From NCBI GenBank assembly GCA_022561055.1, contig JADFRY010000001.1, forward strand, positions 121,262-185,261: 64,000 nt of DNA. The letters are read 5' to 3'. Of this stretch, positions 39,701 to 55,517 are shown piece after piece; the stretch's first letter is position 1; each line of letters opens with the position of its first letter. Under the pieces are notes generated by a model, which saw only the letters and a list, made by a program, of their open reading frames with translations, searched no databases and was not told the DNA's origin. The translations under genes and the position numbers were made by a program. This DNA comes from Nanobdellota archaeon (GTDB lineage Archaea > Nanobdellota > Nanobdellia > Pacearchaeales > GW2011-AR1).

Positions 39701-39736
39701 TAGTAAGTTATTTAAATCAAATTACTCTGTAGGTTT
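39701..39736 (+). promoter_or_regulatory. Promoter region of surface-protein gene 1 (TATA-like tatttaaatc)
   Basis: The sequence is tagtaagttatttaaatcaaattactctgtaggttt followed by ATG. Homologous sequence also occurs at 42791-42836 and 52610-52658. Confidence 0.4.
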
Positions 39737-42700
39737 ATGCGAAAAAAGTGGTGGATGATTATTATTGTTTTGATTGCTTTGTTAGTTGTCGTTGCTAGTT
39801 ATAATTATATTACTACTGGTGTTCTTTTTGCTCCTTTTTTAGATAGTGATGGTGCTGATGGTTTTATTGGTGAGGAAAGTTTTGGGGTTGTTGAGAGTGA
39901 TGGAGCTGAAGATACGATTATAGAAGACGAGGAATTGAAAGTAGGAAATATATTAGAGAGGCTTTTTGCCGGCGAGGAGCGGGTCGCTCCTAGGACATTT
40001 AAGGTCTTTGCAACAGATTCTAATTTTACAGGAGATGTTTTGAATAGGGCTGATGAAATTTGTAATGATGCGGCTTCTAATGCTGGATTGAGGGGGAATT
40101 ATGTGGCTTTATTGAGCACGACGAGGGAACATGCCGTGGATAAAATACAAGATGGGAAATACTTGAGAGTCGATGGAGTTAAGATTGCAGATAACAAGAG
40201 AGATTTGTTTGATGGGACTATTGATAACCCTTTAAATGTTAATGAGTTTGGTAATGTATTGCCTACGCTTACTTGCGATAGTAATGGATTTGAGTGTAAT
40301 TTAATTTATACCGGTAGTAAGGTTGATGGCACTTTAGATCCTGGTTTTAATTGTAATGATTGGAATTCTATCTCTGCACTTTCTACAGTTGGACATTATC
40401 CAAGTGTCGATCATAATTGGATAAATACAAATAATGTTTCTTGTTCTGAAGTCTTAGGAATTTATTGTTTTGAATCTTATGTTACTAGGCCAGAGTGTGA
40501 TGAGGTTTACACTGTACGGGATTTAGATAATGTAAGGAATGATTTAGATGCTTGTTATATCCAGATGGCAGATATTGATATGACAGGAGTGGTTTGGGAG
40601 CCTATTGGACAGATAGACCTTAATATGTTTCCGAGTCCGAATGACAGACCATTCACAGGAAGATACGATGGTAATGGATTTAAGATAACTAATTTTGAAA
40701 TACCTGAAACAAATGCTTCTGCTTTATTTGCTTATTCTACTGGAATTATAGAGAATGTTACTATTGATGGTTTTAATATAGATACTAGGAATTCTTTAGG
40801 GATAATAGGTTCTTTAATTGCTGTTAATGAAGGGGTTGTGAGAAATTCTTTGGCTAAAAATGGATTTATGAGAGTCGCCGGTTCATCCATCCTTTCAGAA
40901 GGTATTGGTGGTTTAATTGGTGCAAATCTTGAAGGGAATATAAGGAATTCTGGAGTTATTAGAGTAACTATTTTTGGAAATAGTTTTGTTGGAGGGCTTA
41001 TGGGGGGAACGTTGTATGGTATAATTGAAAGTACCTATGCAGAAGATGTAAATGTTCAATCTCAGGGCAGGGATAGGTTTGTAGGAGGTCTTATAGGAGT
41101 AGTGGCAGGAACTGGGTCTATAAAAGACACAAATATAACTGACTCGTATGCAACTGGCAATGTTGGAAATGGCAATGAAAATGATGTTGGAGGGTTAATT
41201 GGAGGTTTCGAAGGGATTGAATCAGAATTATATAATTCTCATTTTAGAGGTGTTGTTAATGGAAGAGGAAAGGTGGGAGGTCTTATAGGGTCAGGAGAGT
41301 TTGTAACTGTTGGAAATTCTTATTCTCTTGGAACTGTTAACGGAGATTATGATGTTGGCGGACTAATTGGAGTTGCAAGGCATGTAGATATTGTAGATAG
41401 CTTTTCAACAAGTACAGTTCAGGGTAAACAATTTGTAGGAGGTTTGGTTGGAGGCATGGTTAGAAGCTCTATTAAGGATTCTCACAGTAGTGGTAATGTA
41501 AGTGGAGAAATAAGTGTTGGTGGACTAATAGGTAGTCTTTGGCAGGGAGACAATAGTATATTTAAATCATATGCAACAGGAAATGTGTTTGGGAGAAATG
41601 ATGTTGGTGGTTTCGCCGGGTACATTAGTGATTCTGCTTTAGTAAATGAATCTTTTGCTCTAGGCAATGTTGTTGGTAATATAAGTACTATTATAAGTAC
41701 TATTGGAGGATTCGCAGGGATTAATGGCGGAAATGTAACTAATTCATTTTCTAAAGGGTCAGTGTTAGGAACTAATTTAGTGGGAGGTTTCGTTGGAAGT
41801 GATTTATTTGGAGTAATGTTACAAGGAGCTCCTGAACATTCTTATTCTACTGGATTTGTCAGTGGAAATTACTCTGTAGGAGGCTTTTCAGGGGGAGGAA
41901 CGTTGGTTTCTAATACAAATTACTGGGACATTGAAACCTCAAATCAAACAACAAGTGCTGGAGGAGTTGGCAAAACAACAGCAGAAATGAAAAGGCAGAA
42001 TACATTTGAAAATTGGGACTTTAATAGAGTTTGGGATATTGCAGAAGATAGAACTTATCCGTTCTTGAGGTGGATGTCTGAGGAGGAATTGGTTGTACAC
42101 TATAAGTTTGATGAAATTACAAACGGCAAGACACCAGATAGTTCGATATTCAGATATGATGCGGATGTTTCAGGAGCTACATTATGGCAGTGGGGAAATA
42201 TAGACAAGGCATTGAATTTCAGTGGTTGGAGAGATTTTGTCTCTGTGGAAGATACTCCATTTTTGTATTCAGATAAGGAAATAACTATTTCGGCTTGGGT
42301 TAATACGAAGAAAAAATGGAAGCCTCTCCAAACTATTGCTTGGAAAGGAAATCCGGAGGGAAGTGCTGTTAATAGTAGTAATAGAGAGTTTGCTTTATTC
42401 TTGGCAGGGTCTGAAGACCCTAGTGCTGGAGGACAACATAATAGCAAGGTGCAAATAGTATTTACTCCTGAAAATAGAATTGGAGTAGGACAGATTCCAT
42501 GCACGACAAATACTTTTCCTATCAGAGCAGAAAATTGGTGGTATCATGTTGCCGGCGTTATCGATGTTAGAAATCAAGTAATGAAGATTTATGTTGATGG
42601 AGTGGAGGTTAAGACATGTAATATTCTTGGCATATCAAATATTAGAAATACAAATGGTTCGTTGGTTGTAGGGAATAAGATGCCATTGCCTGCCGGTAGC

Positions 42701-42790
42701 AGCGCAGGATTTACAGGAATGATTGATGATTTTAGACTTTATAGCAGGGTTTTGAGTGATGTGGAAATATTTGATTTGGCTAATGTGTGA
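39737..42790 (+). CDS. Large membrane-anchored surface protein 1: Cys-containing lectin-like domain, GLUG repeats and a LamG-like domain
   Basis: N-terminal TM anchor WWMIIIVLIALLVVVA. A ~190-aa domain follows (FKVFATDSNFTGDVLNRADEICN...NCNDWNS...LGIYCFE, tentatively DUF1554/endostatin-like). It has 12 or more GLUG-type units (VGGLIG, VGGLMG, VGGFAG). The C-terminus is a concanavalin-A/LamG-like domain (VHYKFDE...ALNFSG...ITISAWVN...WYHVAGV...IYVDGV...IDDFRLYSRVLS). Confidence 0.85.
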   Translation: MRKKWWMIIIVLIALLVVVASYNYITTGVLFAPFLDSDGADGFIGEESFGVVESDGAEDTIIEDEELKVGNILERLFAGEERVAPRTFKVFATDSNFTGDVLNRADEICNDAASNAGLRGNYVALLSTTREHAVDKIQDGKYLRVDGVKIADNKRDLFDGTIDNPLNVNEFGNVLPTLTCDSNGFECNLIYTGSKVDGTLDPGFNCNDWNSISALSTVGHYPSVDHNWINTNNVSCSEVLGIYCFESYVTRPECDEVYTVRDLDNVRNDLDACYIQMADIDMTGVVWEPIGQIDLNMFPSPNDRPFTGRYDGNGFKITNFEIPETNASALFAYSTGIIENVTIDGFNIDTRNSLGIIGSLIAVNEGVVRNSLAKNGFMRVAGSSILSEGIGGLIGANLEGNIRNSGVIRVTIFGNSFVGGLMGGTLYGIIESTYAEDVNVQSQGRDRFVGGLIGVVAGTGSIKDTNITDSYATGNVGNGNENDVGGLIGGFEGIESELYNSHFRGVVNGRGKVGGLIGSGEFVTVGNSYSLGTVNGDYDVGGLIGVARHVDIVDSFSTSTVQGKQFVGGLVGGMVRSSIKDSHSSGNVSGEISVGGLIGSLWQGDNSIFKSYATGNVFGRNDVGGFAGYISDSALVNESFALGNVVGNISTIISTIGGFAGINGGNVTNSFSKGSVLGTNLVGGFVGSDLFGVMLQGAPEHSYSTGFVSGNYSVGGFSGGGTLVSNTNYWDIETSNQTTSAGGVGKTTAEMKRQNTFENWDFNRVWDIAEDRTYPFLRWMSEEELVVHYKFDEITNGKTPDSSIFRYDADVSGATLWQWGNIDKALNFSGWRDFVSVEDTPFLYSDKEITISAWVNTKKKWKPLQTIAWKGNPEGSAVNSSNREFALFLAGSEDPSAGGQHNSKVQIVFTPENRIGVGQIPCTTNTFPIRAENWWYHVAGVIDVRNQVMKIYVDGVEVKTCNILGISNIRNTNGSLVVGNKMPLPAGSSAGFTGMIDDFRLYSRVLSDVEIFDLANV
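39983..40483 (+). repeat. 501-bp near-identical block shared with 52878..53378
   Basis: Aligned by eye: about 14 substitutions and no indels, and the last ~155 nt are identical. The block lies inside the lectin-like domain of both surface-protein genes. Confidence 0.85.
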
Positions 42791-42836
42791 TAGTAAGTTT
42801 TAGTATTATATCAAGGATAATTATTTAAATCAAATT
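42791..42836 (+). promoter_or_regulatory. Orphan third copy of the surface-protein upstream/promoter sequence
   Basis: tagtaagtt...tcaaggataattatttaaatcaaatt combines elements seen upstream of both gene 1 (tagtaagttatttaaatcaaatt) and gene 2 (tcaaggataatttaggtaatatatttaaac). No surface-protein ORF follows it. Confidence 0.45.
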
Positions 42837-42928
42837 TTCAACACACCAAAAATATTATAAACACACTATTTCTTAATGTATTAACATAATCCCAGGTGAT
42901 CCGAAAGGGTTGCCTGATGCTTTAAAAA

Positions 42929-43477
42929 ATGAAATCTACGATCGTATTTATTGACGGAGGTTATCTTTCTTTTATCTCTAAATTTTTTGGAAAAGGAAAG
43001 CCTCTTAGATATAAAATGGAAGTTTTTGCAAGTAATCTTGCAAAGGCTAGAGGGGCAGAATGCAAAAAAATTTATTTTTATACAGCACCACCCTATCAAA
43101 GTTCAAACCCAACTCCTGAAGAAAATAAGAGAAAAGCTAATTACGATAAATTTGTCTCAAAGTTAAAGGAAGCTAAAATCATAGTAAGAGAAGGAAGGTG
43201 CCAAAAAATTGACAATACTTATCAACAAAAAGGAGTCGATACTTTATTGACTATTGATTTGTCAAGAATTCCTAGAATTGAAGGAATTTCCGATGTTATA
43301 GTCTTAACTTCGGATACAGACTTTGTTCCGATTATAAATGACTTATCTGAAGATGGAATAAATGTGATCCTTGCTTATTTTACTGACAAAAAAAGAAAAT
43401 CTGGATTGTCTCTTTCAAATCATTTATGGAACTCTTGCAAGGATAAGATAAAGATAAGAAAAGAATATTTTTCTTAA
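42929..43477 (+). CDS. NYN-domain (LabA-like) protein
   Basis: TIVFIDGGYL, KGVDTLLTIDL and VLTSDTDFVPII match the NYN/LabA ribonuclease-fold motifs. Confidence 0.75.
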   Translation: MKSTIVFIDGGYLSFISKFFGKGKPLRYKMEVFASNLAKARGAECKKIYFYTAPPYQSSNPTPEENKRKANYDKFVSKLKEAKIIVREGRCQKIDNTYQQKGVDTLLTIDLSRIPRIEGISDVIVLTSDTDFVPIINDLSEDGINVILAYFTDKKRKSGLSLSNHLWNSCKDKIKIRKEYFS

Positions 43478-43506
43478 ATGGGTGAGAGATTATTGAGAAG
43501 AGTTAG

Positions 43507-43617
43507 TCAACAAAGAAAATGCAAACTTAAGATACTTATGAAGAATGGGATTTTGAGAATATTTGGACGAGGGTTGTCGAACCGAGCTATCCTTCATTAA
43601 GATGGCAGTGGTTGTAA
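43507..43617 (+). pseudogene. Relic of the C-terminal end of a GLUG-repeat module
   Basis: This frame reads STKKMQT*DTYEEWDFENIWTRVVEPSYPSLRWQWL*. It aligns residue for residue with the post-GLUG motif of the intact genes (TTAEMKRQNTFENWDFNRVWDIAEDRTYPFLRW), and carries an in-frame TAA at 43528. There is no upstream coding continuation. Confidence 0.5.
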
Positions 43618-43663
43618 ACTGATTTATCGGATTATTTAAATACACAATCTTCTTTTTTGATAC

Positions 43664-45379
43664 ATGAAGTACTCTGAGTTAGTCGAGATATATGAAGCTC
43701 TCTCCCAGACGACAAAGAAGCTAGAGAAGGTAGATATCTTAGCGAGGTTTTTACCGAAGCTTAAGGGAGATGAGGAGAAAGTTTATTTGTTGAGAGGAAG
43801 AGTTTTTCCTGATTATGATGAGAGAGAGTTTGGTTTGTCAGGGCAGTTGTCTATCAAGGTTATTTCAAAGTCTACTGGCGTGAATGTTGAAAAGGTTGTT
43901 TCTAGATTTAGAAAACTCGGAGATTTAGGAGATGTTGCTGCAGAGTTAATTGATAAAAAGAGACAGTCGACTTTATTTTCTAAAAATTTAAGTGTCGATA
44001 AAGTATTTGGAAATTTGAGGAAACTTGTTGAAATAGAGGGAAAGGGTTCTGTCGATAAGAAGTTAAATTTAGTCCTCGAGCTTCTGACTTCTGCTTCAGG
44101 TAGGGAAGGAAGGTATATCATCAGAACTATTTTGAATGATTTGAGAGTGGGTGTTGCCGATGCTTTACTTAGAGATTCTATTGCTAAGGCTTTTTTTGAA
44201 GGAGATAAAGATATGAATGAGAAGGTTGAGGAAGCTTATGATAAATTAAATGATTTTGCTTTGATTTTAGAGATTGCAAGAAAAGGAAAAAAAGCTTTTG
44301 ATAAAGTTGAAGTTGTTCCTGGGAGGCCGATAAAAGTTATGCTTCCAGTTAAAGTTACTGAACTTTCTGAGGCATTTAGAATTTGTGGTAGACCGTTGGC
44401 TGTCGAACATAAGTATGATGGCTTTCGGGTTTTAATAAATAAAGATGAGGAAGGGAAGATAAGTTTGTTTACCCGTCGGCTTGACAATGTTACAAAACAA
44501 TTTCCAGATGTTGTAGAAATTGTTAAGAAATGTGTTAAAGCAAAGAGTTTTGTTTTAGATTCTGAAATTGTGGGTTATGATCCTAAAAAACAGAGATACA
44601 AACCCTTTGAGGCTATAAGTCAGAGGATAAGGAGAAAGCATGATATCGAATCCATGGTCAAGAAACTTCCTGTAGGCATAAATATTTTTGATATAATTTA
44701 TTTGAATGGAAAGAGTACTATTAATTTTCCATTTGAAAAGCGTAGGAAAGCTTTGGAGAAAATTGTTAAGCCTGAGAAATGGAAAATACGTTTATCCAAA
44801 CAGTTTATCAGCGATGATGAGAAGGCAATAAATAAGTTTTACAAGGATGCATTGAAGGTTGGAGAGGAAGGAATAATGCTGAAGAAGTTGGATGCCCCAT
44901 ATAGACCAGGAAGGAGAGTTGGTTATATGGTTAAGATGAAACCAGAAGCTGCCGATTTAGATTTAGTTATTGTTGGAGCAGAGTATGGCAAGGGCAAAAG
45001 GTCTGGTGGTTTGACGAGTTATGTTCTTGCTTGTAGGAGTAATGATGGAAAGAAGTTTTTTGAGGTTGGAAAAGCTTCCTCTGGTTTGAAAGAAAAAGAA
45101 ACTGAAGAAGGAACTAGTTATGCTGAGATGGATAAATTGCTCCAGCCTTTGATAAAGAGTGAGAAGGGTAATGTTGTGAGTGTAAGGCCGAAGGTTGTGG
45201 TGAGTGTTACATATCAGAATGTTCAGCCGAGTCCGAGATATGATTCGGGTTATGCGTTGCGTTTCCCGAGGATAACTCATTACAGGCCGGAACGTGGCAC
45301 ACACGATATTGCTACGGTAAAAGACATAAAGAAAGAGTTTCAAAGAATGCAAAAGATGAGGAAGAGCGGTTTAGGATAA
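43664..45379 (+). CDS. lig: ATP-dependent DNA ligase
   Basis: The adenylation motif AVEHKYDGFRVLI contains the KxDG motif. EGIMLKKLDAPYRPGRR and a C-terminal OB-fold region are also present. The 571-aa size fits archaeal Lig. Confidence 0.9.
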   Translation: MKYSELVEIYEALSQTTKKLEKVDILARFLPKLKGDEEKVYLLRGRVFPDYDEREFGLSGQLSIKVISKSTGVNVEKVVSRFRKLGDLGDVAAELIDKKRQSTLFSKNLSVDKVFGNLRKLVEIEGKGSVDKKLNLVLELLTSASGREGRYIIRTILNDLRVGVADALLRDSIAKAFFEGDKDMNEKVEEAYDKLNDFALILEIARKGKKAFDKVEVVPGRPIKVMLPVKVTELSEAFRICGRPLAVEHKYDGFRVLINKDEEGKISLFTRRLDNVTKQFPDVVEIVKKCVKAKSFVLDSEIVGYDPKKQRYKPFEAISQRIRRKHDIESMVKKLPVGINIFDIIYLNGKSTINFPFEKRRKALEKIVKPEKWKIRLSKQFISDDEKAINKFYKDALKVGEEGIMLKKLDAPYRPGRRVGYMVKMKPEAADLDLVIVGAEYGKGKRSGGLTSYVLACRSNDGKKFFEVGKASSGLKEKETEEGTSYAEMDKLLQPLIKSEKGNVVSVRPKVVVSVTYQNVQPSPRYDSGYALRFPRITHYRPERGTHDIATVKDIKKEFQRMQKMRKSGLG

Positions 45380-45435
45380 AATAGCCCTTTAAAAAGGTTT
45401 ATAAAGGGATTTTCTTTAAAAATACTGATTCTATA

Positions 45436-46014
45436 ATGGTTAAATCAAAATCAAATCTTAAAGTTCAAAATATTGTTGCTACGGCTTCCTTAGGGAAACC
45501 AGTTTCTTTGACTAAGCTTGCGAGAATGCATAGCGGCAATACGGAGTATAATCCTGAGCAATTTCCTGGTTTGGTTTTACGTGTGAAAAAACCAAAATCT
45601 GCTGTTTTGGTTTTTTCTTCTGGGAATCTTGTTTGCACAGGAACAAAAAGCGTACGACAGGTTAGAGAGGTAATATCACAAGTCATAACACAACTTGCGA
45701 AAATTGGAGTTAAGATAACAGAAAAGCCGAAGATAACTGTGCAAAATATTGTGGCTTCTGGAAGCATAAATGTTGACCTTAATCTTAATCTTTTAGCTTT
45801 GGAATTAGAGAATACAGAATATGAGCCAGAACAGTTTCCTGGTTTGGTTTATAAGTTAGATAACCCAACAACGACTTTCTTGCTTTTTTCTAATGGAAAA
45901 TTGGTTTGCACTGGAACTAAAAACAGGCAGCAGTTGGAAGATGCAATGTATCAGTTGAATAAAAATGTTAAAGCTGTTCTGAGAAAGATAAAGAAGAAGA
46001 AAAGAAAAAGGTAG
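45436..46014 (+). CDS. tbp: TATA-box-binding protein, with a basic C-terminal tail
   Basis: Two direct repeats: QNIVATASLG...EYNPEQFPGLVLRV...VLVFSSGNLVCTGTKS and QNIVASGSIN...EYEPEQFPGLVYKL...FLLFSNGKLVCTGTKN. The tail is RKIKKKKRKR. Confidence 0.92.
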   Translation: MVKSKSNLKVQNIVATASLGKPVSLTKLARMHSGNTEYNPEQFPGLVLRVKKPKSAVLVFSSGNLVCTGTKSVRQVREVISQVITQLAKIGVKITEKPKITVQNIVASGSINVDLNLNLLALELENTEYEPEQFPGLVYKLDNPTTTFLLFSNGKLVCTGTKNRQQLEDAMYQLNKNVKAVLRKIKKKKRKR

Positions 46015-46044
46015 TAATTTAAACTGTTTTCTGTTAATGATTTT

Positions 46045-46386
46045 ATGATATTTAGTCTTGCTGAAGAACATTTTTATAAGAGAAAAAGAATTCATCAAAG
46101 GCATGAGCCATATCCTCATCCCGTAAGATGGAAGAGGATTATTGATAGAGTTATTTATATTGCAGCATTTATAGGACCTTTATTGACTTTACCACAGGTT
46201 CTTAAAATATGGATTGGCAAGAGTGCTATCGGTGTATCAATTATTTCATGGTCGTTTTTTTTATTATTGGCATTTATTTGGCTTATCTATGGTATTGCCC
46301 ACAAATCAAAACTACTTATTTTTAATAATATTTTGTGGATGCTTATGGATTTTTTGATCATATTAGGAGTGATAGTTTATGGATAG
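46045..46386 (+). CDS. PQ-loop (SemiSWEET-like) three-TM membrane protein
   Basis: GPLLTLPQVLKIWIGKSAIGVSIISW carries the PQ motif in TM1. There are three TM helices and the size is ~110 aa. Confidence 0.55.
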   Translation: MIFSLAEEHFYKRKRIHQRHEPYPHPVRWKRIIDRVIYIAAFIGPLLTLPQVLKIWIGKSAIGVSIISWSFFLLLAFIWLIYGIAHKSKLLIFNNILWMLMDFLIILGVIVYG

Positions 46387-46570
46387 GAATTATTCTGATA
46401 TGGATACTGGTAAGTTGAGAGTTATGATTGGTGCACTTGATTTGTTAATTCTGGCTAGGAATTATAGGAGTGGTGTAAGGGGGCTATCGACAGAGGAAAA
46501 GTTAGAGCGTGATCGAAATTTTGCTGAGAGAGTTAGGATTAGGGAAGAATTAGATAGAAGATTAAATTAA
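46379..46570 (+). CDS. Hypothetical small protein
   Basis: 63-aa ORF that overlaps the upstream gene by 8 nt. No motif recognised. Confidence 0.35.
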   Translation: MDRNYSDMDTGKLRVMIGALDLLILARNYRSGVRGLSTEEKLERDRNFAERVRIREELDRRLN

Positions 46571-47730: not shown

Positions 47731-47731
47731 T

Positions 47732-48244: not shown

Positions 48245-48300
48245 TACATGGGAAAGAAGAAAGGGTATTTATGTTTTTATGGATTGTTGGGATTATTATC

Positions 48301-48543
48301 TCATACTCTTAGTTTTCTGTGATGGGTTCTTCCTTCATTTTTCAGGTATTCAAGCGCTAGTCTGGCATCACCCTCTGGAACACCAAATTCAGTTGATATG
48401 TCTTCTGGTTGTATTGATTGCCAAAGAGGAGTTTTTCTTACGTATAATTCTGAAGCTCTTTTTAGCAACGATTGATATTTTTCCCTATAACTTTCACCTG
48501 TTAAATTAGCTGCAGAATTTCTTTCGGTTTCTTCAGTTGTCAT
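48301..48543 (-). CDS. Hypothetical protein
   Basis: 80-aa ORF. No motif recognised. Confidence 0.4.
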   Translation of the reverse strand: MTTEETERNSAANLTGESYREKYQSLLKRASELYVRKTPLWQSIQPEDISTEFGVPEGDARLALEYLKNEGRTHHRKLRV

Positions 48544-48548
48544 TAGAT

Positions 48549-48758
48549 TTAACCCTTCAAATCAGAAATTCCCAGAAGAACGAATAAAACGCCGATCATT
48601 GCAATAAACCAGAAAATACCGCCCTTGAGGAAAATCCATGCTGGACCCCAGAAATTTAAAGATTTCCCGAAAATAGTCCATGTTTGGGAGTAAAATGCAA
48701 TTATAATTGGAACTACTATTAATATTAATCCAATAAGAAGTTCAGCCCATTTGTTCAT
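48549..48758 (-). CDS. Small membrane protein (2-3 TM helices)
   Basis: 69-aa hydrophobic ORF. Confidence 0.45.
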   Translation of the reverse strand: MNKWAELLIGLILIVVPIIIAFYSQTWTIFGKSLNFWGPAWIFLKGGIFWFIAMIGVLFVLLGISDLKG

Positions 48759-48877
48759 GATATTTTTATTGTATGGAGGTTTATAAATATTATTGTTAAT
48801 TTTTGTATAGTTTGGGAGTAAAAATCTGTGTTTTTCTTGAGCAAAACATTAAAAACTCTATTTGTAATTTTATTTCT

Positions 48878-49969
48878 ATGCTAACTAAAAAACAGCTTTC
48901 TGAAATACGTGAGCATTTAGAGAGAGCTCAGAATCCTGTGTTTTTTTATGATAATGATGCTGATGGGTTTTGTAGTTATGTGCTTTTTAGGAGATTTTTA
49001 GGTAGGGGAAAAGGAGTCGCTGTCAGGACTCATCCGAATATTGATGCAGGATATGCAAAAAAAGCGCAGGAATTTGGTTCAGACTATGTTTTTATTTTAG
49101 ACAGGCCTTTTCTTGGGAAGGAGTTTGTTGAAGAAATAGAAAAGTTGCAGTTGCCTATAGTTTGGATTGACCACCATGATATAAAAGAAAATATTAACGA
49201 TTATGGATATGATAATATTTTTGTTTATAATCCGACTAGGACATCTTATAAAAAGAGTAAAAAAAGCAATGAGCCTGTGACTTATTTGGCTTATAAAGTT
49301 GTTAACAGGAAGGAAGATGTTTGGATTGCTGTGATGGGTTGTATTTCAGACCATTATATGCCTGATTTTATTAAAGAATTTGCTAAAGAATATTCTGAAT
49401 ATTGGAGGCAGCAGATAGCAATAGAAAAGCCATTTGACGCTTATTATAAGACTGAAATAGGATTTTTAGCCAGAGCGTTAGGTTTTGGACTTAAGGATTC
49501 AATAACTCATGTTGTCCAGCTGCAGAACTTTTTGGTTTCATGTAAATCTCCTGCAGATGTTTTGTCAGAGATTGAATCTAATAGGCCATTTGGTAAAAAG
49601 TATAGAGAGTTAAGAAAAAAATATGATTTATTAATAGAGAAAGCGAAGAAAAATGTTGACGGCAAAATTATATTTTTTTGTTATGGAGGAAATTTAAGTA
49701 TTAGTTCAGATATTTCAAATGAGTTGTCTTTTTTGTATCCAGGACGTTTTATTATTGTTGGTTATATGATGGAGTCTATTAGTAATTTGTCTATAAGAGG
49801 AGATGACGTTAAGTCTTTGATAGAAAAGTTATTGCCAAGATTTAAAGATTCTAGGGGAGGAGGTCATAGGAATGCAGTCGGTGTTAGGTTACAAACAGAA
49901 GATTTAGAAAGATTTAAGAAGGAATTTGAGGAAGAGGTAAATAGGAAAAATGCAAGAAATAAAAATTGA
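48878..49969 (+). CDS. DHH/DHHA1-family phosphoesterase (RecJ/GAN-like)
   Basis: FFYDNDADGFCS is the DHH motif I/II region. VWIDHHD contains the DHH motif, and GGGHRNAVG is the DHHA1 motif. The likely start is ATG 48878; the track ORF begins at 48803. Confidence 0.65.
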   Translation: MLTKKQLSEIREHLERAQNPVFFYDNDADGFCSYVLFRRFLGRGKGVAVRTHPNIDAGYAKKAQEFGSDYVFILDRPFLGKEFVEEIEKLQLPIVWIDHHDIKENINDYGYDNIFVYNPTRTSYKKSKKSNEPVTYLAYKVVNRKEDVWIAVMGCISDHYMPDFIKEFAKEYSEYWRQQIAIEKPFDAYYKTEIGFLARALGFGLKDSITHVVQLQNFLVSCKSPADVLSEIESNRPFGKKYRELRKKYDLLIEKAKKNVDGKIIFFCYGGNLSISSDISNELSFLYPGRFIIVGYMMESISNLSIRGDDVKSLIEKLLPRFKDSRGGGHRNAVGVRLQTEDLERFKKEFEEEVNRKNARNKN

Positions 49970-50972
49970 AATTTTTGGAAGAGTTCAGGGAATTGGATTT
50001 AGACATTTTACTAAAGAGCATGCTGATAAGTTAGGATTGAAAGGATTTGTCAGGAACACAGACCAGGGAAGTGCTTTGGTTATTGCTCAGGGTGATAAGA
50101 AAAAGCTTGAAGAGTTACTTAAGATTGTGCAGAAAGGACCGATTCTTACTCATGTCGAGGGAGTTTCATATTTTTGGAAAAAGGCTGAAAATAATTATTC
50201 TGATTTTGTTATAGCATTGGATAAAGGAATTATTGAGGACCAGAAAAGAAATTTTTTGAATTTAGGCAAAAGTGTTTTAAATATAAAAGACAGAATTCCG
50301 AGGCATATTGCTATAATTCCCGATGGAAATAGAAGGTGGGCTACTAAGAGAGGACTTAATATTTTAATGGGACATAAAAAATCTGCAACTTATGAAAAAA
50401 TTATTGCTTTATCAGAAGAGGCAAAGCAGTTAGGAATAAAATATATTACTGTTTGGGTTTTTTCTACAGAAAACTGGAAAAGGGACTCGGAAGAAATTAA
50501 GAATATTTTCGGACTAATTTTAAAAGTTTTGAAGAGATTTAGGAAAGAAGCTAAGAAGAATCAGTTTAGATTTAGACATTTAGGGAGAAAAGATAGACTA
50601 CCTAAAAAACTTGTTGATGAAATTTTAAAGGTAGAGGAAGAAACAAAAGAGTTTGATAAATTTAATATTCAGTTATGTATTGATTACGGCGGGCGTGATG
50701 AGATTACGAGGGCGATTAATAAATTATTAGAGTCTGGCGTTAAAGAGATAAAAGAAGATGAGCTTTCTATGTATTTGGATTCTATTGGCATTCCTGACCC
50801 TGATTTGATTATAAGGACTTCTGGAGAAAAGAGGACAAGCGGTTTTATGCCTTTCCAGTCAATTTATGCAGAGCTGTATTTTGCAGATGTGGATTTTCCT
50901 GATTTTGGGCCGGAAGAGTTAAGAAAAGCTGTTGAAGAGTTTGCAGAGAGGAAGAGAAATTTTGGGAAGTGA
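49950..50972 (+). CDS. uppS: Fusion protein: N-terminal acylphosphatase-like domain plus cis-prenyltransferase (undecaprenyl-diphosphate synthase family)
   Basis: The N-terminal ~90 aa (IEIFGRVQGIGFRHFTKEHADKLGLKGFVRNTDQGSALVIAQG) match the acylphosphatase signature VxGxVQGVxFR...G.V.N. The remainder (HIAIIPDGNRRWATKRGL, WVFSTENWKR, IRTSGEKRTSGFMPFQ) matches UppS. Confidence 0.8.
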   Translation: MQEIKIEIFGRVQGIGFRHFTKEHADKLGLKGFVRNTDQGSALVIAQGDKKKLEELLKIVQKGPILTHVEGVSYFWKKAENNYSDFVIALDKGIIEDQKRNFLNLGKSVLNIKDRIPRHIAIIPDGNRRWATKRGLNILMGHKKSATYEKIIALSEEAKQLGIKYITVWVFSTENWKRDSEEIKNIFGLILKVLKRFRKEAKKNQFRFRHLGRKDRLPKKLVDEILKVEEETKEFDKFNIQLCIDYGGRDEITRAINKLLESGVKEIKEDELSMYLDSIGIPDPDLIIRTSGEKRTSGFMPFQSIYAELYFADVDFPDFGPEELRKAVEEFAERKRNFGK

Positions 50973-51034
50973 TTTGTATTTACTAGTTAAGATAAATTTA
51001 AATAGAAAACTTGTTTTTTATAGTAGAGGTGAAA

Positions 51035-52045
51035 ATGGATTTACTTGAGAGTTTGATTAATCTTGATGGAGTTAGTGGCGATGAGCACGACGTGAGGGAT
51101 TTTATTATCAGAGAGTGCAAGAAGTATGTTAAAAACGTGGACGTTGATAAAATGGGAAATGTCATTGTTAGCAGGAAAGGGAAAAAACCTGCGATACTGT
51201 TTCTGGCTCATATGGATGAGATTGGTCTCATGGTAAAAAGGATAACTCGGCGTGGAAGGATGTATATTAGTCCTATCGGTGGTATAGACCCTCCAATTTT
51301 AATCGGACAAAGAGTTTTTATTAAAGGAAAAGAAAAGATACAAGGAGTCATTACGACTGACGAAGTTTTAAACGACGATTTAGTTCCTAACACAGTTAAG
51401 ATGGAAGAGCTTTTCGTTCATTCTGGTCTCGATGCTAAGGAATTGAAGAAAAAGGGCGTTAATATAGGAACATATATGTCTTTTGGGAGCAACTATGATT
51501 GTTGTACTTTAGGTTCTAAAGATGTTATTTCTGGCAAGGCTTTGGATGACAGGATTGGTTGTTATATTTTGCTTGAACTGATGAGAAACTTGAAAACTAA
51601 GAATGAAATTTATTTTGTTTTTACAGTTCAGGAAGAAGTCGGACTTTATGGGGCGAAGGCTTCTGTTTTTAATTTGGAGCCTGACTATGCAATTGCTGTC
51701 GATGTTACAGGACATGAGGATAGAAATGATACAATGATTTTAGGAAACGGGCCTGCTTTGACAATTAAAGATGCTGAAATGCTCGGCAATAAATGTTTAA
51801 ATGAGGCATTACAAGAAGTTGCTGCGAAATTAAATATTAACTTGCAATTAGAAGTTGGTGACGTTGGTACTACCGATGCGACTTCGATTTTTGCATCTAA
51901 GGGAGGAATTCCTTCTGCTGTTTTAGGAGTTTCTGTCGCTAATATACACACTACTATTGGCATGGCACATAAAGAAGATATTGTGGGAGCTGTTAAGGTT
52001 CTTAGAGGATTTTTAAAGAATCCCCCGGCGAAGTGCTGGGCCTAG
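51035..52045 (+). CDS. M42-family metallopeptidase (TET aminopeptidase / FrvX-like)
   Basis: LLESLINLDGVSGDEHDVRDFI, FLAHMDEIGLMV, GKALDDRIGC and FTVQEEVGLYGA all match. The likely start is ATG 51035. Confidence 0.75.
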   Translation: MDLLESLINLDGVSGDEHDVRDFIIRECKKYVKNVDVDKMGNVIVSRKGKKPAILFLAHMDEIGLMVKRITRRGRMYISPIGGIDPPILIGQRVFIKGKEKIQGVITTDEVLNDDLVPNTVKMEELFVHSGLDAKELKKKGVNIGTYMSFGSNYDCCTLGSKDVISGKALDDRIGCYILLELMRNLKTKNEIYFVFTVQEEVGLYGAKASVFNLEPDYAIAVDVTGHEDRNDTMILGNGPALTIKDAEMLGNKCLNEALQEVAAKLNINLQLEVGDVGTTDATSIFASKGGIPSAVLGVSVANIHTTIGMAHKEDIVGAVKVLRGFLKNPPAKCWA

Positions 52046-52568
52046 TAGATTTATTAATACTAAACTTTTCAGAGAAGTATTTTGCTCTTCTTTCTACTGT
52101 CCAATTTTGAATAGAATTATAGAATCCTATTTGAATGAAGTCATAGATATTTCTTTCAATTCTTGGTTGGTATGATAGTATTATAGCATGGGGGTCTATG
52201 AGGTCTGGTTTTTCCTCTATTATTTCTGTATTTTTTGGGGTTATTGTAGGAATAAATCCGAGTGGTTTTAAGGCGCAATAGACTGTTCTCAATTTTGCTA
52301 TTTCCCACCACCCCCACAATCTTCTATCTTCTTGATCTGCGTAGACAGAAGGAGGTTCAACTAGTTCTATAGATATTTGACCCGTATTTCTAAATTTTTT
52401 TCCTGTGTGTTCAGACACAAATCTAAGTCTTCTTTGTAAGTATCTGGGAGAATTCTGTAGAGGCATCTCGAAGGTTAGAGAGCGATCAATTAATTCTGGA
52501 TTTCTGATGGTTATTAAACTAATAAAATTGTCAAGAGAAGAGACTATTTTTGATAGGTCATCCATCAA
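52002..52568 (-). CDS. Hypothetical protein
   Basis: 188-aa ORF. Its last ~14 codons overlap the 3' end of the convergent M42 gene. No motif recognised. Confidence 0.45.
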   Translation of the reverse strand: MMDDLSKIVSSLDNFISLITIRNPELIDRSLTFEMPLQNSPRYLQRRLRFVSEHTGKKFRNTGQISIELVEPPSVYADQEDRRLWGWWEIAKLRTVYCALKPLGFIPTITPKNTEIIEEKPDLIDPHAIILSYQPRIERNIYDFIQIGFYNSIQNWTVERRAKYFSEKFSINKSTRPSTSPGDSLKIL

Positions 52569-52609
52569 AATGTTATCAAGGGGTTTGAATTTTTAAGGAT
52601 ATAGGTGAT

Positions 52610-52658
52610 TCAAGGATAATTTAGGTAATATATTTAAACGGAGTTACTTTCTAGGTTT
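52610..52658 (+). promoter_or_regulatory. Promoter region of surface-protein gene 2 (TATA-like atatttaaac)
   Basis: The sequence is tcaaggataatttaggtaatatatttaaacggagttactttctaggttt followed by ATG. It is homologous to 39701-39736 and 42791-42836. Confidence 0.4.
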
Positions 52659-55517
52659 ATGCGAAAAGAGTGGTGGATGATTATTTTAGTTTTAGTTGCT
52701 TTGTTAGTTGTCGTTGCAAGTTATAATTATATTACAACAGGTGTTCTCTTTGCTCCTAAGTTGAGTAGTGGTGGTGCTGATAGTTTTTCTGGTGAGGTTG
52801 AGAGTTTGGAAGGTGTTAGTGAGGAGGAGTTAAAGGAGGAAAGTATATTTACGAGGTATTTTGGAAATGAAGATAGAGTCGCTCCTAGGACATTTAAGGT
52901 CTTTGCAACAGATTCTAATTTTACAGGAGATGTTTTGAATAGGGCTGATGAAATTTGTAATGGTGCAGCCTCTAATGCTGGATTGAGGGGGAATTATGTG
53001 GCTTTATTGAGCACGACTAGGGAACATGCCGCGGATAAAATACAAGATGGAAAATATGTGAGAGTCGATGGAGTTAAGGTTGCAGATAACAAGAGAGATT
53101 TGTTTGATGGAACCATTGATAATCCTTTAAATGTTAATGAGTTTGGTAATGTATTGCCTACGCTTACTTGCGATAGTAATGGATTCGAGTGTAATTTAAT
53201 TTATACCGGTAGTAAGGTTGACGGCACTTTAGATCCTGGTTTTAATTGTAATGATTGGAATTCTATCTCTGCACTTTCTACAGTTGGACATTATCCAAGT
53301 GTCGATCATAATTGGATAAATACAAATAATGTTTCTTGTTCTGAAGTCTTAGGAATTTATTGTTTTGAATCTTATGTTCCTAGACCAAGTTGTAATAGGG
53401 TTTACACTGCCCAGGATTTAGATAACGTGAGGAATGATTTAGATGCTTGTTATATCCAGATGGCTGATATTGATTTGGGTAGTTGGGGTAACTGGGAACC
53501 TATTGGATACTTGGACATTAATACGTTTCCAGGCCCTAACGACAGGCCATTCACAGGGAGATATGATGGTAATGGATTTAAAATAACTAACTTTGAAATA
53601 CCTGAAGAAAATCTTTCTGCGTTATTTGCTTATTCCACAGGAGTTTTGGAGAATGTTACAATTGATGGTTTTAATATAGACAGCAGGGCGGCGCCACTTA
53701 TAGCTGTCGGTTCTTTGGTAGCAGTTAATGGAGGAGTCGTAAGAAATTCTTTGGCTAAAAATGGATTTATGAGAATCGGTTTATCCTATTTTTCAGAAGC
53801 TATTGGTGGTTTGATTGGTGCAAATATTGATGGAGATATAATGAATTCTGGAGTTAAAAATGTAACTATTTTTGGAAGTTTTACCGCTGGAGGGCTTATG
53901 GGTTTAACGTTGTATGGTATAATTGAAGGCACATATGCAGAAGATGTAAAGGTTCAAGGTCAGGGAGGATTTGTAGGAGGTCTAATTGGACGTATGCAAC
54001 ACACGAATATAACTGATTCATATGCTACGGGAAATGTTAGTGGTGGTATGAGTGTTGGAGGTCTTATAGGAAGTTTTAGAGGCTCTATGATATTTGCAAG
54101 TTCTGTAACTATTAAAAATTCTTATTCTTTTGGAATAGTTAATGGGAGTTATAATGTAGGGGGTTTAGTTGGAATTACGGTCGGAAAGGTAAATATTACA
54201 AATAGCTTTTCATCTAGTAAAGTTTCCGGGAGAAGTTCTGTAGGAGGTTTTATTGGCAGGACCAGGGTCGGGGCTAGAGGAAATTTTATTAGTAATTCTT
54301 ATGCTACCGGAGATGTGTTGGGGAGCAATAATGTTGGTGGATTTTTAGGATATAATCGAGGAACAATTAGTAATTCCTATTCAACAGGTCATGTGCTAGG
54401 AGACGGTAGGCTACCAGAAAACAGTAATGTTGGTGGGCTTTTAGGATACAATGATGGTGGAACCGTTAATAATTCCTATTCAACAGGCGATGTGGTAGGA
54501 AGGGAAAATGTGGGAGGACTTTTAGGACAAAATAATGAGAACGGAATAATTAGTAATTCTTATTCAACAGGTAGTGTGTCAGGGTTTAGTGCTGGCGGTG
54601 GTGGATTGGTAGGAATTAACCAGATGGGAGGACTTATCAGTAATTCTTACTGGGACATTGAAACATCTGGGCAAACCACAAGTGCCGGCGGAGTTGGAAA
54701 GACAACAGCGCAAATGAAAAGGCAAAACACATTTACTAATTGGGACTTTGTTAGGGTTTGGGATATTGCAGAAGATATAACTTATCCATTCTTGAGATGG
54801 CAACTCGAGGAGGGATTGATTGTACACTATAAGTTTGATGAACTTGCGAACGGCAAGACTCCGGACAGTTCTGCATATAGATATGATGCGGATGTTTTTG
54901 CAGCGGGGTTGGTTCCTGGAAAGATAGATGGAGCTCTTAATTTTAGCGGATGGAGAGGCCGTGTTCTCGTGGAAGATACTCCATTTTTGTATTCGGATGA
55001 AGAGATGACTATTTCAGCCTGGGTTAATACGAGGAAAAAATGGAAACCATCTCAGACTATTGTTTGGAAAGGTAATCCTGATGGGAGTCCTGGCGCTGTT
55101 AGCAGTGATAACAGGGAGTTTGCTTTATTCTTGTTGGGAGCTAGGGACAATAGCACTGGTGGATTTAATAGTAAAGTGCAGTTAGCTTTTACCCCAGAGA
55201 ATAGGATTGGAATTGGACAATATGCATGCACGACAATCACATTTCCTATTAGAGCAGAAAATTGGTGGTATCATGTTGCCGGCGTTATCGATGTTAGAAA
55301 CCGAGTAATGAAGATTTATGTCGATGGAGTAAAAGTTAAGACATGTAATATTTCTAGCGTATCAAATATTAGAAATACAAATGGTTCGTTGGTTGTAGGG
55401 AATAAGATGCCGTTGCCTGCGGGTAGCAGCGCAGGATTTACAGGGAAGATAGATGATGTTAGAATTTATAGTAAGGTTTTAAGTGATGCGGAAATCTTAG
55501 AGTTAGCTCAAGGATAG
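52659..55517 (+). CDS. Large membrane-anchored surface protein 2 (paralog of 39737..42790)
   Basis: It has the same architecture as gene 1: TM anchor, lectin-like Cys domain, GLUG repeats, YWDIETSGQTTSAGGVGKTTAQMKRQNTF.NWDF motif and LamG-like C-terminus. It is 952 aa against 1017 aa, and the central repeats are not colinear. Confidence 0.85.
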   Translation: MRKEWWMIILVLVALLVVVASYNYITTGVLFAPKLSSGGADSFSGEVESLEGVSEEELKEESIFTRYFGNEDRVAPRTFKVFATDSNFTGDVLNRADEICNGAASNAGLRGNYVALLSTTREHAADKIQDGKYVRVDGVKVADNKRDLFDGTIDNPLNVNEFGNVLPTLTCDSNGFECNLIYTGSKVDGTLDPGFNCNDWNSISALSTVGHYPSVDHNWINTNNVSCSEVLGIYCFESYVPRPSCNRVYTAQDLDNVRNDLDACYIQMADIDLGSWGNWEPIGYLDINTFPGPNDRPFTGRYDGNGFKITNFEIPEENLSALFAYSTGVLENVTIDGFNIDSRAAPLIAVGSLVAVNGGVVRNSLAKNGFMRIGLSYFSEAIGGLIGANIDGDIMNSGVKNVTIFGSFTAGGLMGLTLYGIIEGTYAEDVKVQGQGGFVGGLIGRMQHTNITDSYATGNVSGGMSVGGLIGSFRGSMIFASSVTIKNSYSFGIVNGSYNVGGLVGITVGKVNITNSFSSSKVSGRSSVGGFIGRTRVGARGNFISNSYATGDVLGSNNVGGFLGYNRGTISNSYSTGHVLGDGRLPENSNVGGLLGYNDGGTVNNSYSTGDVVGRENVGGLLGQNNENGIISNSYSTGSVSGFSAGGGGLVGINQMGGLISNSYWDIETSGQTTSAGGVGKTTAQMKRQNTFTNWDFVRVWDIAEDITYPFLRWQLEEGLIVHYKFDELANGKTPDSSAYRYDADVFAAGLVPGKIDGALNFSGWRGRVLVEDTPFLYSDEEMTISAWVNTRKKWKPSQTIVWKGNPDGSPGAVSSDNREFALFLLGARDNSTGGFNSKVQLAFTPENRIGIGQYACTTITFPIRAENWWYHVAGVIDVRNRVMKIYVDGVKVKTCNISSVSNIRNTNGSLVVGNKMPLPAGSSAGFTGKIDDVRIYSKVLSDAEILELAQG
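52878..53378 (+). repeat. 501-bp near-identical block shared with 39983..40483
   Basis: See the partner repeat at 39983..40483. The offset between copies is 12895 nt, in direct orientation. Confidence 0.85.

Follow-up and report, generated by a model that had tools for sequence, protein, structure and literature searches.

Mosaic identity between two GLUG/LamG genes of a DPANN archaeon: evidence for gene conversion within a small gene family

Genes A and B and the proteins they encode

The window analyzed here, the whole 64-kb stretch of DNA, contains two open reading frames on the same strand, A (39737-42790, +, 1017 aa) and B (52659-55517, +, 952 aa), whose starts are 12,922 nt apart. The initial annotation described them as a paralog pair of giant GLUG-repeat surface proteins 12.9 kb apart with one architecture. 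Position, strand and architecture were all verified: the proteins are 64% identical over their full length (BLASTP), both exceed the Pfam cutoffs for Glug (A 33.8 bits, B 82.7 bits, gathering cutoff 20.5) and for Laminin_G_3 (PF13385; A 69.9 bits, B 76.7 bits, cutoff 27.6), the latter matching over profile positions 5-150/151, and the motifs YWDIETS...TYPFLRW, FPIRAENWWYHVAGVIDVRN and SNIRNTNGSLVVGNKMPLPAGSSAGFTG are found in both translations. The proteins are large, yet not giant. Counted by GGxxG there are 12 GLUG units in A and 10 in B, and the "12 or more" units ascribed to each are thus present in A only. The parts of the two genes are given in Table 1.

Table 1. Parts of genes A and B and the evidence for each, in window coordinates.
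Feature	Coordinates	Strand	Evidence
A, putative promoter/leader	39698..39736	+	TATA-like TTATTTAAAT at 39708-39717; TTACTCTGTAGGTTT immediately 5' of ATG
A, predicted signal peptide or signal anchor, codons 1-33 (MRKKWWMIIIVLIALLVVVASYNYITTGVLFAP)	39737..39835	+	sole hydrophobic segment, KD19 max 2.6
A, acidic, weakly conserved linker, codons 34-82	39836..39982	+	pN 0.32, pS 0.49 and indels against B
A, predicted endostatin-like (DUF1554-type) domain; recent conversion tract	39983..40483	+	14/501 differences to B, pS 0.09
A, predicted beta-helix: start region (YTVRDLDNVRN...FTGRYDGNGFKITN) and 12 GLUG (GGxxG) units	40484..41920	+	Pfam Glug; pS 0.41-0.51; unit-number indels against B
A, helix cap motif YWDIETS...NWDF..VWDI..TYPFLRW	41921..42106	+	motif match
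A, C-terminal LamG (Laminin_G_3), three-way mosaic with B and the S8 gene	42107..42790	+	Pfam E=3e-19; informative-site runs test P=5e-5; silent partner switching
Orphan copy of the family promoter element (ATTATATCAAGGATAATTATTTAAATCAAATT)	42805..42836	+	15 nt 3' of A stop; 32/32 match to L022 402-433, just 5' of S8 gene
B, putative promoter/leader (ATATTTAAAC ... TTACTTTCTAGGTTT 5' of ATG)	52619..52658	+	homology to A/S8 5' region
B, predicted signal peptide or signal anchor, codons 1-33	52659..52757	+	hydrophobic segment; similarity to A/S8
B, predicted endostatin-like domain; conversion tract	52878..53378	+	53223-53378 identical to A
B, predicted beta-helix start, 10 GLUG units and YWDIETS cap	53379..54833	+	Pfam Glug 82.7 bits, 5 stretches
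B, C-terminal LamG, central part nearest to LamG of S8 gene	54834..55517	+	Pfam E=3e-21; 85.4% nt identity to L022 3621-4313

Both genes are complete and each has its own similar promoter-like element. The homology of A to B and to the S8 gene described below extends ~40 nt upstream of the ATG, and the TATA-like sequence of A has the position of an archaeal TATA box, which suggests a promoter role for this element. The motif TTACTYTSTAGGTTTATG is found in the window at A and B only; the element is too rare there to be a general promoter consensus of the genome.

Each protein has one hydrophobic segment near its N-terminus (residues ~5-30), preceded by RKK/RKE, and no second transmembrane segment. 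By the positive-inside rule the bulk of both proteins is predicted to be outside the cell, which is the topology first proposed, and the N-terminus may serve either as a cleaved signal peptide or as an anchor. A Cys domain of the disulfide type and lectin domains are compatible with an extracellular location.

The Cys domain had been suspected to be DUF1554/endostatin-like. Compared directly with Pfam it stays below the gathering cutoffs of DUF1554 (PF07588; 21.3 bits, cutoff 27.5) and of Endostatin (16 bits, cutoff 29.4), yet the Endostatin profile is covered over its whole length, and relatives exceed the Pfam cutoffs. A single-sequence phmmer search of the PDB gave noise only, and a profile built from 30 sequences found endostatin with E=3e-14. 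The AF2 model based on the 30-sequence alignment had a pLDDT of 93.7 (51 with a 4-sequence version), and when this model was used in Foldseek the five best matches were all endostatin (E 5e-10 to 7e-9, TM 0.74-0.78). The disulfide cysteines C30/C127/C157/C165 are invariant. Profile, model and structure search thus agree with the early guess, and the domain is predicted to have an endostatin fold of the DUF1554 type with two conserved disulfides.

The architecture of A and B is seen again in the proteins P0006 and P0249, and the cap motif YWDIETS...TYPFLRW is common to A, B, P0006, P0249 and P0059. In P0059 the endostatin-like domain stands after the helix. The best outside relatives in three large collections are 40% identical or less. 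GLUG homologs number in the hundreds at 30-39% identity, a metagenome scan gave no relative above 39%, and a scan of genome contigs with the LamG alignment (the source MAG is no GTDB representative) gave only distant bacterial LamG domains at 30% or less. Domains of the endostatin type, familiar from animal collagens, occur widely as parts of prokaryotic surface proteins, with more than 16,000 cluster representatives.

Uneven divergence of A and B

The nucleotide identity of the two genes had been described as strikingly uneven, and a sliding-window comparison (100 nt) bears this out. It is ~85% over promoter and signal anchor and 94-100% in the endostatin block. The GLUG core, which has indels, is at 12-60%, the 5' part of LamG at 64-83% and 42484-42730 at 88-94%, and in the flanks identity falls to ~35%, which is the random level. 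The comparison of 39983-40483 with 52878-53378 (501 nt) gives exactly the 14 substitutions and 0 indels that had been counted, and the identical end of the block, 40328-40483 against 53223-53378, is 156 nt long with zero differences. The borders of the block are sharp. The 25 nt leading up to 39983 contain 11 differences and are followed by 85 identical nt, and the first 16 nt beyond 40483 contain 6. The genes on either side and in between are unrelated housekeeping genes.

One old duplication followed by uneven purifying selection along the protein, without any recombination, would be one explanation for such a profile, and the block of highest identity is indeed exactly a folded, disulfide-bonded domain (codons 83-249) with a pN of only 0.013. 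However, selection at the protein level leaves synonymous sites unconserved, and the silent sites contradict this explanation. Between A and B, codons 83-250 have a pS of 0.09 and codons 251-400 one of 0.41; it is 0.51 in GLUG, 0.61 in LamG codons 791-930 and 0.18 in LamG codons 931-1000. Among the 681 degenerate codons with identical amino acids the longest silent-identical run is 50 codons (permutation maximum 48, n=20,000), the maximum chi-square is 67.6 (permutation maximum 24.1), and the silent sites are clustered with a permutation P<5e-5; Fisher tests of the endostatin block against other regions gave P=4e-10 and 9e-5. A constraint acting on the nucleotides themselves might have had the same effect, but the block has no match in Rfam, and on its opposite strand no ORF reaches 80 aa. 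Moreover, the nearest neighbor changes along LamG when a third gene is included (see below). We regard an explanation by selection only as very improbable. Since the borders of the tracts are the borders of domains, selection probably shapes which conversion tracts persist.

It was also proposed that diversification is focused on the repeat core and the lectin surface. This is at variance with a dN/dS below 1 in every region (0.44 in GLUG; 0.14 in the N-terminal part of LamG, where dS is 1.24). The diverged part of LamG in A versus B points to an old divergence and to exchange with a different partner; in this part B is close to the S8 gene.

As the window is part of a metagenome-assembled genome, it might be argued that a chimeric strain assembly or a collapsed repeat has produced the mosaic, the more so as other assemblies break exactly at the A and B genes. 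The contigs of these assemblies speak against it. Contig L024 is 100% identical to window 40328-53234 (12,907 nt) and contig L088 to window 34624-40037 (5,414 nt); both end inside the block shared by A and B, and jointly they cover the 5' and 3' parts of A and the 5' part of B. In all, three contigs from two other ENA assemblies match the window fully without a chimeric junction. That these assemblies match the window at 100% and break within the shared block shows the repeat to be real. With R as the shared block, A5'-R-(A3'...B5')-R-B3' is the sole linear path which uses the unique middle segment once, and, as the 14 substitutions in the block show, the assembly has resolved two separate copies. 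An artefact of assembly or binning can hardly account for the mosaic. The three contigs that break in genes of this family are a caution for the assembly and binning of such genomes.

A family of genes exchanging patches

A and B are members of a family of putative surface-protein genes in which at least four genes exchange patches of DNA, and the description as a paralog pair, correct as far as it goes, understated the number of genes carrying these modules. A third gene, on the separate contig L022 of the same population, codes for an S8-protease/beta-helix/LamG protein, and the LamG end of a fourth gene (D) is found in L087. What they have in common with A and B is the promoter/signal-anchor module and/or LamG. 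The placing of these genes in one genome or population with A and B rests on the proximity of the accessions (MCH7567978/7567992/7568620) and on co-occurrence in two ENA assemblies, each of which holds both loci; the family comparison covers this one population. Toxin-antitoxin genes, which are typical of variable regions, adjoin all loci of the family.

The 5' module of the family, MRKEWW...VVVASYNYITTGVL, is ~90% identical at the nucleotide level in codons 1-33 among A, B and S8, and over promoter and anchor the S8 gene is 83-87% identical to A and B; the similarity of promoter and signal-anchor regions noted earlier for A and B is thus a property of three genes. The LamG of the S8 gene is 85% identical to that of B and 78% to that of A. 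Along LamG the nearest relative at silent sites is first A=B, then B=S8 and then A=B again; in the segment A812-925 pS is 0.26 between B and S8 versus 0.63 between A and B. The three-way mosaic includes 24 consecutive A-private sites at 42171-42234. In the last 240 nt, with D included, 7 sites join A with B and S8 with D, 3 join A with S8 and B with D, and 2 join A with D and B with S8, counts which are too few to decide.

The proposal that repeated gene conversion or recombination produced the patchwork is borne out, because silent divergence is heterogeneous, borders are sharp, tracts are nested and partners switch among three paralogs. Low-pS tracts, sharp borders and partner switching in at least three paralogs are what characterizes concerted evolution by gene conversion. 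It could be thought that the patches were instead imported from other strains or species, by allelic exchange or domain shuffling. The 24 private differences of A look as if they came from a remoter donor, and the modules of the LamG and endostatin-like types occur widely and move between architectures, as in P0059. But a gene of the same population provides the closest sequence known for the endostatin block, the 3' tract of LamG and the B/S8 tract, and nothing external reaches a comparable identity in the three collections. We consider import unlikely.

We find it likely that A and B are old paralogs of a small DPANN ("Nanoarchaeota") surface-protein family, in which patches have been overwritten repeatedly by gene conversion. 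The two genes would encode full-length, putatively expressed proteins exported by means of the N-terminal signal peptide or anchor. Outward from the membrane there would be the acidic linker, the disulfide-bonded endostatin-like domain (DUF1554-type, C-type-lectin-related), a GLUG stalk in the form of a right-handed beta-helix with the YWD...NWDF cap, and a terminal LamG/concanavalin-like domain. The duplication would be old, with dS ~0.6 to >1 in the helix and the N-terminal part of LamG. Ectopic homologous recombination between family members would then have overwritten the endostatin-like domain (a ~500-nt tract with the zero-difference tract nested in it), promoter and anchor, and parts of LamG, with at least two further genes of the population, the S8 protease/beta-helix/LamG gene and the fourth LamG gene, taking part. 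In this way the export and lectin modules common to the genes would evolve in concert, and the "passenger" parts in the center would grow apart through point mutations and the gain or loss of GLUG units. With one population sampled, any direction, number or timing assigned to single conversion events would be tentative.

The initial annotation went further and saw candidates for antigenic-style variation. Shared ends would then be handles for a programmed recombination which frequently switches the core in order to evade hosts, viruses or grazers. A conserved 5' end (promoter and anchor) and a conserved 3' LamG flank differing passengers in at least three genes, an orphan copy of the promoter is located 3' of A, toxin-antitoxin neighbors are present at all loci, and diversification of surface proteins is known from DPANN archaea (PMC7443923 mentions a DGR locus for Ca. 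Nanohalobium). Against this, every copy is full-length and has a promoter of its own, and no further copies, fragments or promoterless cassettes were found in the 64-kb window. No RT/DGR is present among the larger ORFs scanned in the window and the differences are not A-biased, which speaks against a DGR target; TR/VR-type extra repeats were not found in the window, where the direct repeat has two partners only, and neither were invertible-promoter repeats or SSRs. Membership in the cassette type was rejected as well, as there is no cassette archive in the 64-kb window and the converted tracts are conserved modules. The recombined parts spare the variable core, dN/dS stays below 1 throughout, and the contigs identical to the window have no chimeric junction. 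Programmed variation has in our judgment only a small chance of being right. What the locus shows is gene conversion between paralogs, a clean example but a fairly ordinary one; it is not programmed antigenic variation and reveals no new mechanism.

Improbable as well is a reading in which the promoter/anchor and LamG modules act as portable handles which re-assort passengers (GLUG helices, protease/beta-helix and others) among loci. If so, they would permit combinatorial remodelling of the surface without DGRs or silent cassettes, and the orphan promoter after A and the toxin-antitoxin-flanked loci would be footprints of passenger rearrangement.

Under gene conversion between paralogs, the locus documents well how genes of an uncultivated DPANN archaeon evolve in concert, with export and lectin modules near-identical via recombination and diverging central parts. 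The layout of A and B is plausibly that of an adhesin or ligand-binding fiber, with a role in adhesion or in binding of a host or of particles. Fibers with LamG, endostatin-like and GLUG parts, together with the LamG-tagged S8 protease, would be the best candidates for a cell-cell contact apparatus of the lineage.

Comparison with known systems

With GLUG proteins (Pfam PF07581; N-terminal regions of streptococcal IgA1/Zmp proteins and adhesin-like proteins) A and B share the repeated GGLxG units, the start "...DIDL...PIG...FxGxxDGxGxxI.N" and the cap "YWD...W.F..VW.I". Unlike IgA1/Zmp they have other terminal domains and no M26 peptidase domain: no peptidase family is among their Pfam matches, the zinc-binding motif HExxH of M26 is absent from both translations, and membership was rejected with NCBIfam ZmpA at 21 bits, in the GLUG region only, versus a cutoff of 3000. 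The Cys domain resembles endostatin (NC1 of collagen XV and XVIII) and DUF1554 in its predicted fold, in the four disulfide cysteines and in the full-length profile match. Unlike animal endostatin, to which sequence identity is only 16-19%, it has an additional pair of cysteines (TLTCDSNGFEC), which only A, B and P0249 possess.

Secreted LamG-domain proteins are expanded in DPANN archaea, e.g., in Mia14/ARMAN and Ca. Nanohalobium, and host interaction is the standard conjecture for them (PMC5498576, PMC7443923). The SPEARE proteins of Ca. Nanohaloarchaeum antarcticus are mentioned in one of these papers as "unusually large" (PMC7443923). As in these sets, we have a small genome with several putatively secreted LamG/ConA-like proteins, one of them with a serine protease, and a proposed host role. 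Unlike these sets, A and B carry an endostatin-like domain and a GLUG beta-helix in addition, their ~1000 aa make them far smaller than SPEARE, and their host link is putative.

Neisseria pilE/pilS and Borrelia vlsE have one expression site and many promoterless silent cassettes, and it is the variable region which is converted. Like A and B, which encode predicted surface proteins, they are genes for surface proteins, conserved at the ends and subject to gene conversion. In contrast, the copies of the A/B family are intact and bear promoters, and the conserved modules are the ones converted.

The bacterial tuf and rRNA copies are cases of concerted evolution by gene conversion between paralogs. 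The archaeal mtrA duplicates have evolved in concert by ectopic gene conversion (PMC4632066). A and B agree with all of these in being dispersed paralogs of the same genome with housekeeping DNA in between, with silent near-identity tracts, sharp borders and nesting. They differ in that they encode putative surface proteins, not core enzymes, and in that the network spans genes with differing central domains (a GLUG helix versus an S8 protease/NosD helix), of which only the end modules are homogenized.

Genes A and B and their domains

The two same-strand ORFs of the initial annotation, here called genes A and B, were found with the positions and lengths it had assigned, their starts 12,922 nt apart in AT-rich, archaeal DNA (GC 0.30-0.40). 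Both are deposited in GenBank on a 185-kb contig (MCH7567978.1, MCH7567992.1) as 'MAG: LamG domain-containing protein [Nanoarchaeota archaeon]', a name consistent with the small-genome DPANN archaeon that had been guessed. The interval between them holds unrelated housekeeping genes (NYN, ATP-dependent DNA ligase, TBP, Nre, NUDIX, DHH phosphoesterase, an acylphosphatase-UPP synthase fusion and M42 aminopeptidase), the outer flanks show no relationship between A and B (~35% identity), and there is no third copy in the 64 kb.

Features of the surface-protein loci and further observations (window coordinates unless a contig is named)
Feature	Position	Strand	Remarks
Gene A	39737-42790	+	1017 aa
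Gene B	52659-55517	+	952 aa
Endostatin block, A	39983-40483		A codons 83-249
Endostatin block, B	52878-53378
LamG mosaic	42077-42156		A=B
LamG mosaic	42171-42472		B=S8; includes 24 consecutive A-private sites
LamG mosaic	42484-42736		A=B
LamG mosaic	last ~50 nt		A=S8
RadA/Rad51-family ATPase	37519-38250	+	short, 243 aa, RadB-like size; 1.5 kb upstream of A
Toxin-antitoxin genes, incl. two PIN-domain genes	38535-38915 (+), 38947-39345 (-), 39345-39614 (-)		upstream of A
ParE-like pair			downstream of B
Possible winged-helix protein	55623-55934		103 aa; precedes ParE-like frame
ParE/RelE-like toxin frame	55936-56283		in-frame TAG at 56080-56082; weak Pfam ParE_like/ParE_toxin matches
Stretch matching L022 1-75	55998-56072		97% identical
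MNT-HEPN pair	L087 212-1445		between fourth LamG gene and S8 gene
32-nt element ATTATATCAAGGATAATTATTTAAATCAAATT	42805-42836		15 nt past A stop, ~95 nt upstream of NYN gene
Looser variant TCAAGGAATAGTTATATAAAT	56292-56312		upstream of aldehyde dehydrogenase gene
Acylphosphatase-UPP synthase ORF	49950-50972	+	N-terminal acylphosphatase and cis-prenyltransferase domains; unusual fusion
Rfam tRNA match	7496-7620	-	58 bits; 125 nt for a 71-nt model
DUF5667 ORF	19895-21469	-	524 aa; domain N-terminal

Two entries lie away from these loci. The Rfam match probably represents an archaeal tRNA with an intron (ARAGORN did not report any tRNA in the window), and the DUF5667 ORF is possibly another envelope or secreted protein.

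The GLUG and LamG domains claimed for both proteins are recovered by Pfam, Glug and Laminin_G_3 exceeding the curated cutoffs in each. The only hydrophobic segment comprises residues ~5-30, preceded by RKK/RKE; by the positive-inside rule we infer that the bulk of each protein is outside the cell, and the segment may be cleaved at VVA|S or retained as an anchor. The endostatin-like domain is followed by a typical GLUG beta-helix start (DLDNVRN...DIDM...WEPIG...FTGRYDGNGFKITN), the GLUG units, a cap (YWDIETS...NWDF..VWDI..TYPFLRW) and LamG. The 12 or more units credited to each protein hold for A (12 GGxxG units) but not for B (10). The first two units and the last are orthologous between A and B; the middle, as initially described, is not colinear. 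The whole architecture is a recurring design, since two unrelated proteins from metagenomes also have it complete: P0006, which aligns with 92% of A at 33% identity, and P0249. In P0059 the endostatin-like domain is placed after the helix.

The Cys-containing domain (~170 residues, A codons 83-249) had been guessed to be DUF1554/endostatin-like, and profiles and a structural model show it to be endostatin-like. Direct Pfam matches were below cutoffs (DUF1554, E 2.5e-4; Endostatin, E 0.01 over the full profile length). Against endostatin crystal structures a four-sequence profile gave E~1e-5 and a 30-sequence profile E=3e-14; the relatives found with the profile exceed the DUF1554 cutoff, and most exceed that of Endostatin too. 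The best five PDB matches of the AlphaFold2 model (pLDDT 93.7) are all endostatins of collagen XV/XVIII (E 5e-10 to 7e-9, TM 0.74-0.78); C-type lectins come next, at noise level. The four disulfide cysteines are invariant. The family is very large, with 16,530 cluster representatives at E<=1e-3 among metagenomic proteins, often in tandem (P0123-P0269; proteins of 2000-3300 aa with as many as 12 matched stretches). To our knowledge little work has been devoted to this prokaryotic family.

The wider gene family

A and B belong to a larger family: at least four genes have common 5' and/or 3' modules, so that 'paralog pair' is right as to their paralogy but not as to their number. The third member is an S8-protease gene on another contig (P0003, MCH7568620.1, 1291 aa, 'S8 family serine peptidase [Nanoarchaeota archaeon]'), with the domain order Peptidase_S8, Beta_helix/NosD, Laminin_G_3. 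Its signal anchor (MRKEWWTIVIVLVALLVVVASYNYITTGVL) is common to A and B, and its LamG has 68% amino acid identity to A and long stretches identical to B. The DNA compared was contig L022, which encodes a one-residue variant of P0003. Its promoter and anchor match those of A and B at 83-87% identity, the TATA/leader TATTTAAATCAAATTACTYTSTAGGTTTATG is common to all three, and its LamG is closer to B (85.4% identity) than to A (78.2%). The 3' end of a fourth LamG gene (80 codons, 81-87% identical to the other three) is found on contig L087, 1.6 kb upstream of the S8 gene, with an MNT-HEPN toxin-antitoxin pair and one small gene between. The accessions of the A, B and S8 proteins fall in one run of ~640 numbers, and both loci co-occur in two ENA assemblies, ERZ27267505 (L087 and the window-identical L024) and ERZ23499870 (L022 and the window-identical L088); this argues that the S8 and fourth genes share a genome or population with A and B. 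The initial annotation's view of a lineage-specific system is borne out in that the collections searched contain no close relative (identity 40% or less).

Toxin-antitoxin genes adjoin every member of the family. The first ~116 nt of the ParE-like frame are 92% identical to L087 1384-1499, within a small gene that directly precedes the S8 gene; the interrupted frame could be a pseudogene or contain a recoded stop. The 32-nt element past A is identical to L022 402-433, in the promoter region directly upstream of the S8 gene, and is an 'orphan' promoter copy.

Mosaic divergence and its origin

Compared in 100-nt sliding windows, A and B have ~85% identity over the signal anchor and the 40 nt preceding the ATG, then 49-68% over the acidic linker. 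Identity rises to 94-100% at 39958-40500 and is 73-86% where the helix starts; the GLUG core, which contains indels, has 12-60%. Within LamG the first two-thirds (5') have 64-83% and positions 42484-42730 have 88-94%; directly past the stop codons identity falls to random. The endostatin block, reported with about 14 substitutions, has exactly 14 in 501 nt, and its final 156 nt are identical. Its borders are sharp: the 25 nt before 39983 hold 11 differences and the next 85 nt none, and 6 differences occur in the 16 nt past 40483.

Synonymous sites provide the decisive test. The proportion of silent differences (pS, Nei-Gojobori) is 0.09 in the endostatin block, 0.41 in codons 251-400, 0.51 in GLUG, 0.42 in the cap, 0.61 in LamG 791-930 and 0.18 in LamG 931-1000. 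Among 681 degenerate codons with identical amino acids in A and B the longest silent-identical run is 50 codons (aa 198-249; maximum of 20,000 permutations, 48), and the maximum chi-square is 67.6 (permutation maximum 24.1). The endostatin block differs from LamG-N (Fisher, P=4e-10) and from the adjacent helix start (P=9e-5). Purifying selection on the protein is ruled out, as it cannot produce the silent-site pattern, and the block matches no Rfam family and carries no opposite-strand ORF that could impose a nucleotide-level constraint. We conclude that the mosaic is genuine and that recombination produced it, as had been proposed. A ~500-nt tract with 2.8% differences encloses the 156-nt tract that has none, which implies more than one conversion event.

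The three-way LamG alignment of A, B and S8 is likewise a mosaic (87 runs, 117 expected, P=5e-5). Silent divergence confirms the switching of partners: pS for A-B, A-S8 and B-S8 is 0.36, 0.72 and 0.65 in A codons 785-811, 0.63, 0.61 and 0.26 in 812-925, and 0.25, 0.36 and 0.42 in 926-1017.

An assembly artefact was ruled out. L024 is window 40328-53234 at 100% identity; it begins exactly where the 156-nt exact repeat does and stops 12 nt into the second copy; L088 is window 34624-40037 at 100% identity and terminates within the 85-nt exact match; L087 stops where the S8 LamG module starts. Because these contigs all break inside or at the edge of shared modules, the modules are treated as repeats by assemblers, and the family genes fragment short-read assemblies of this organism. 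The sequence on both sides agrees with the window, and with direct repeats only one linear path uses the unique 12.7-kb middle segment once. None of the three contigs has a chimeric junction, the number being too small for a population survey.

Antigenic-style variation, with diversification focused on the repeat core and lectin surface, had also been suggested. This is at variance with dN/dS, which is below 1 in all A-B regions (signal anchor 0.16, linker 0.52, endostatin-like 0.13, helix start 0.26, GLUG 0.44, cap 0.21, LamG-N 0.14, LamG-C 0.25). The GLUG core is relaxed and changing in unit number, and diversifying selection is not demonstrable; the LamG-N divergence of A and B is old (dS 1.24) and constrained, and B's version of this part is simply closer to the S8 gene's. 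Nor is programmed variation supported: the window contains no cassettes that are partial or lack a promoter, the ORFs scanned include no reverse transcriptase, the A/B substitutions show no adenine bias, and we found neither inverted repeats bracketing the promoters nor SSRs or long homopolymers. Recombination homogenises the conserved modules: this is concerted evolution, and antigenic diversification would be the reverse.

Proposed mechanism and known systems

Silent sites have been homogenised repeatedly and in patches among the family genes, and A and B have an adhesin-like modular architecture. We propose that the proteins would be exported by Sec via the N-terminal segment and stay membrane-tethered or envelope-bound. 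The endostatin-like lectin-type domain would lie close to the membrane, and the GLUG helix would be a rigid stalk with LamG displayed at its far end. The ligands could be glycans or glycoproteins, borne by a host cell, by a particle or by the cell's own envelope. Homologous recombination would copy tracts between paralogs wherever identity suffices, and selection would keep tracts respecting domain borders. That the shared ends are handles for swapping whole passenger regions seems very unlikely to us. The RadA/RadB-type ATPase gene is ordinary recombination machinery, and its nearness to A is probably coincidental.

LamG-rich secretomes are known in DPANN, and Pfam has catalogued families for GLUG helices and for DUF1554/endostatin-like domains. 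Host attachment is a common conjecture for DPANN LamG proteins (PMC5498576, PMC7443923), which the putative attachment role of A and B would match, and gene conversion between archaeal paralogs has been documented, e.g. for mtrA (PMC4632066). This combination, together with a multi-partner exchange limited to shared end modules in genes whose passengers differ, makes the A/B family a tidy fresh example, not a new kind of system.
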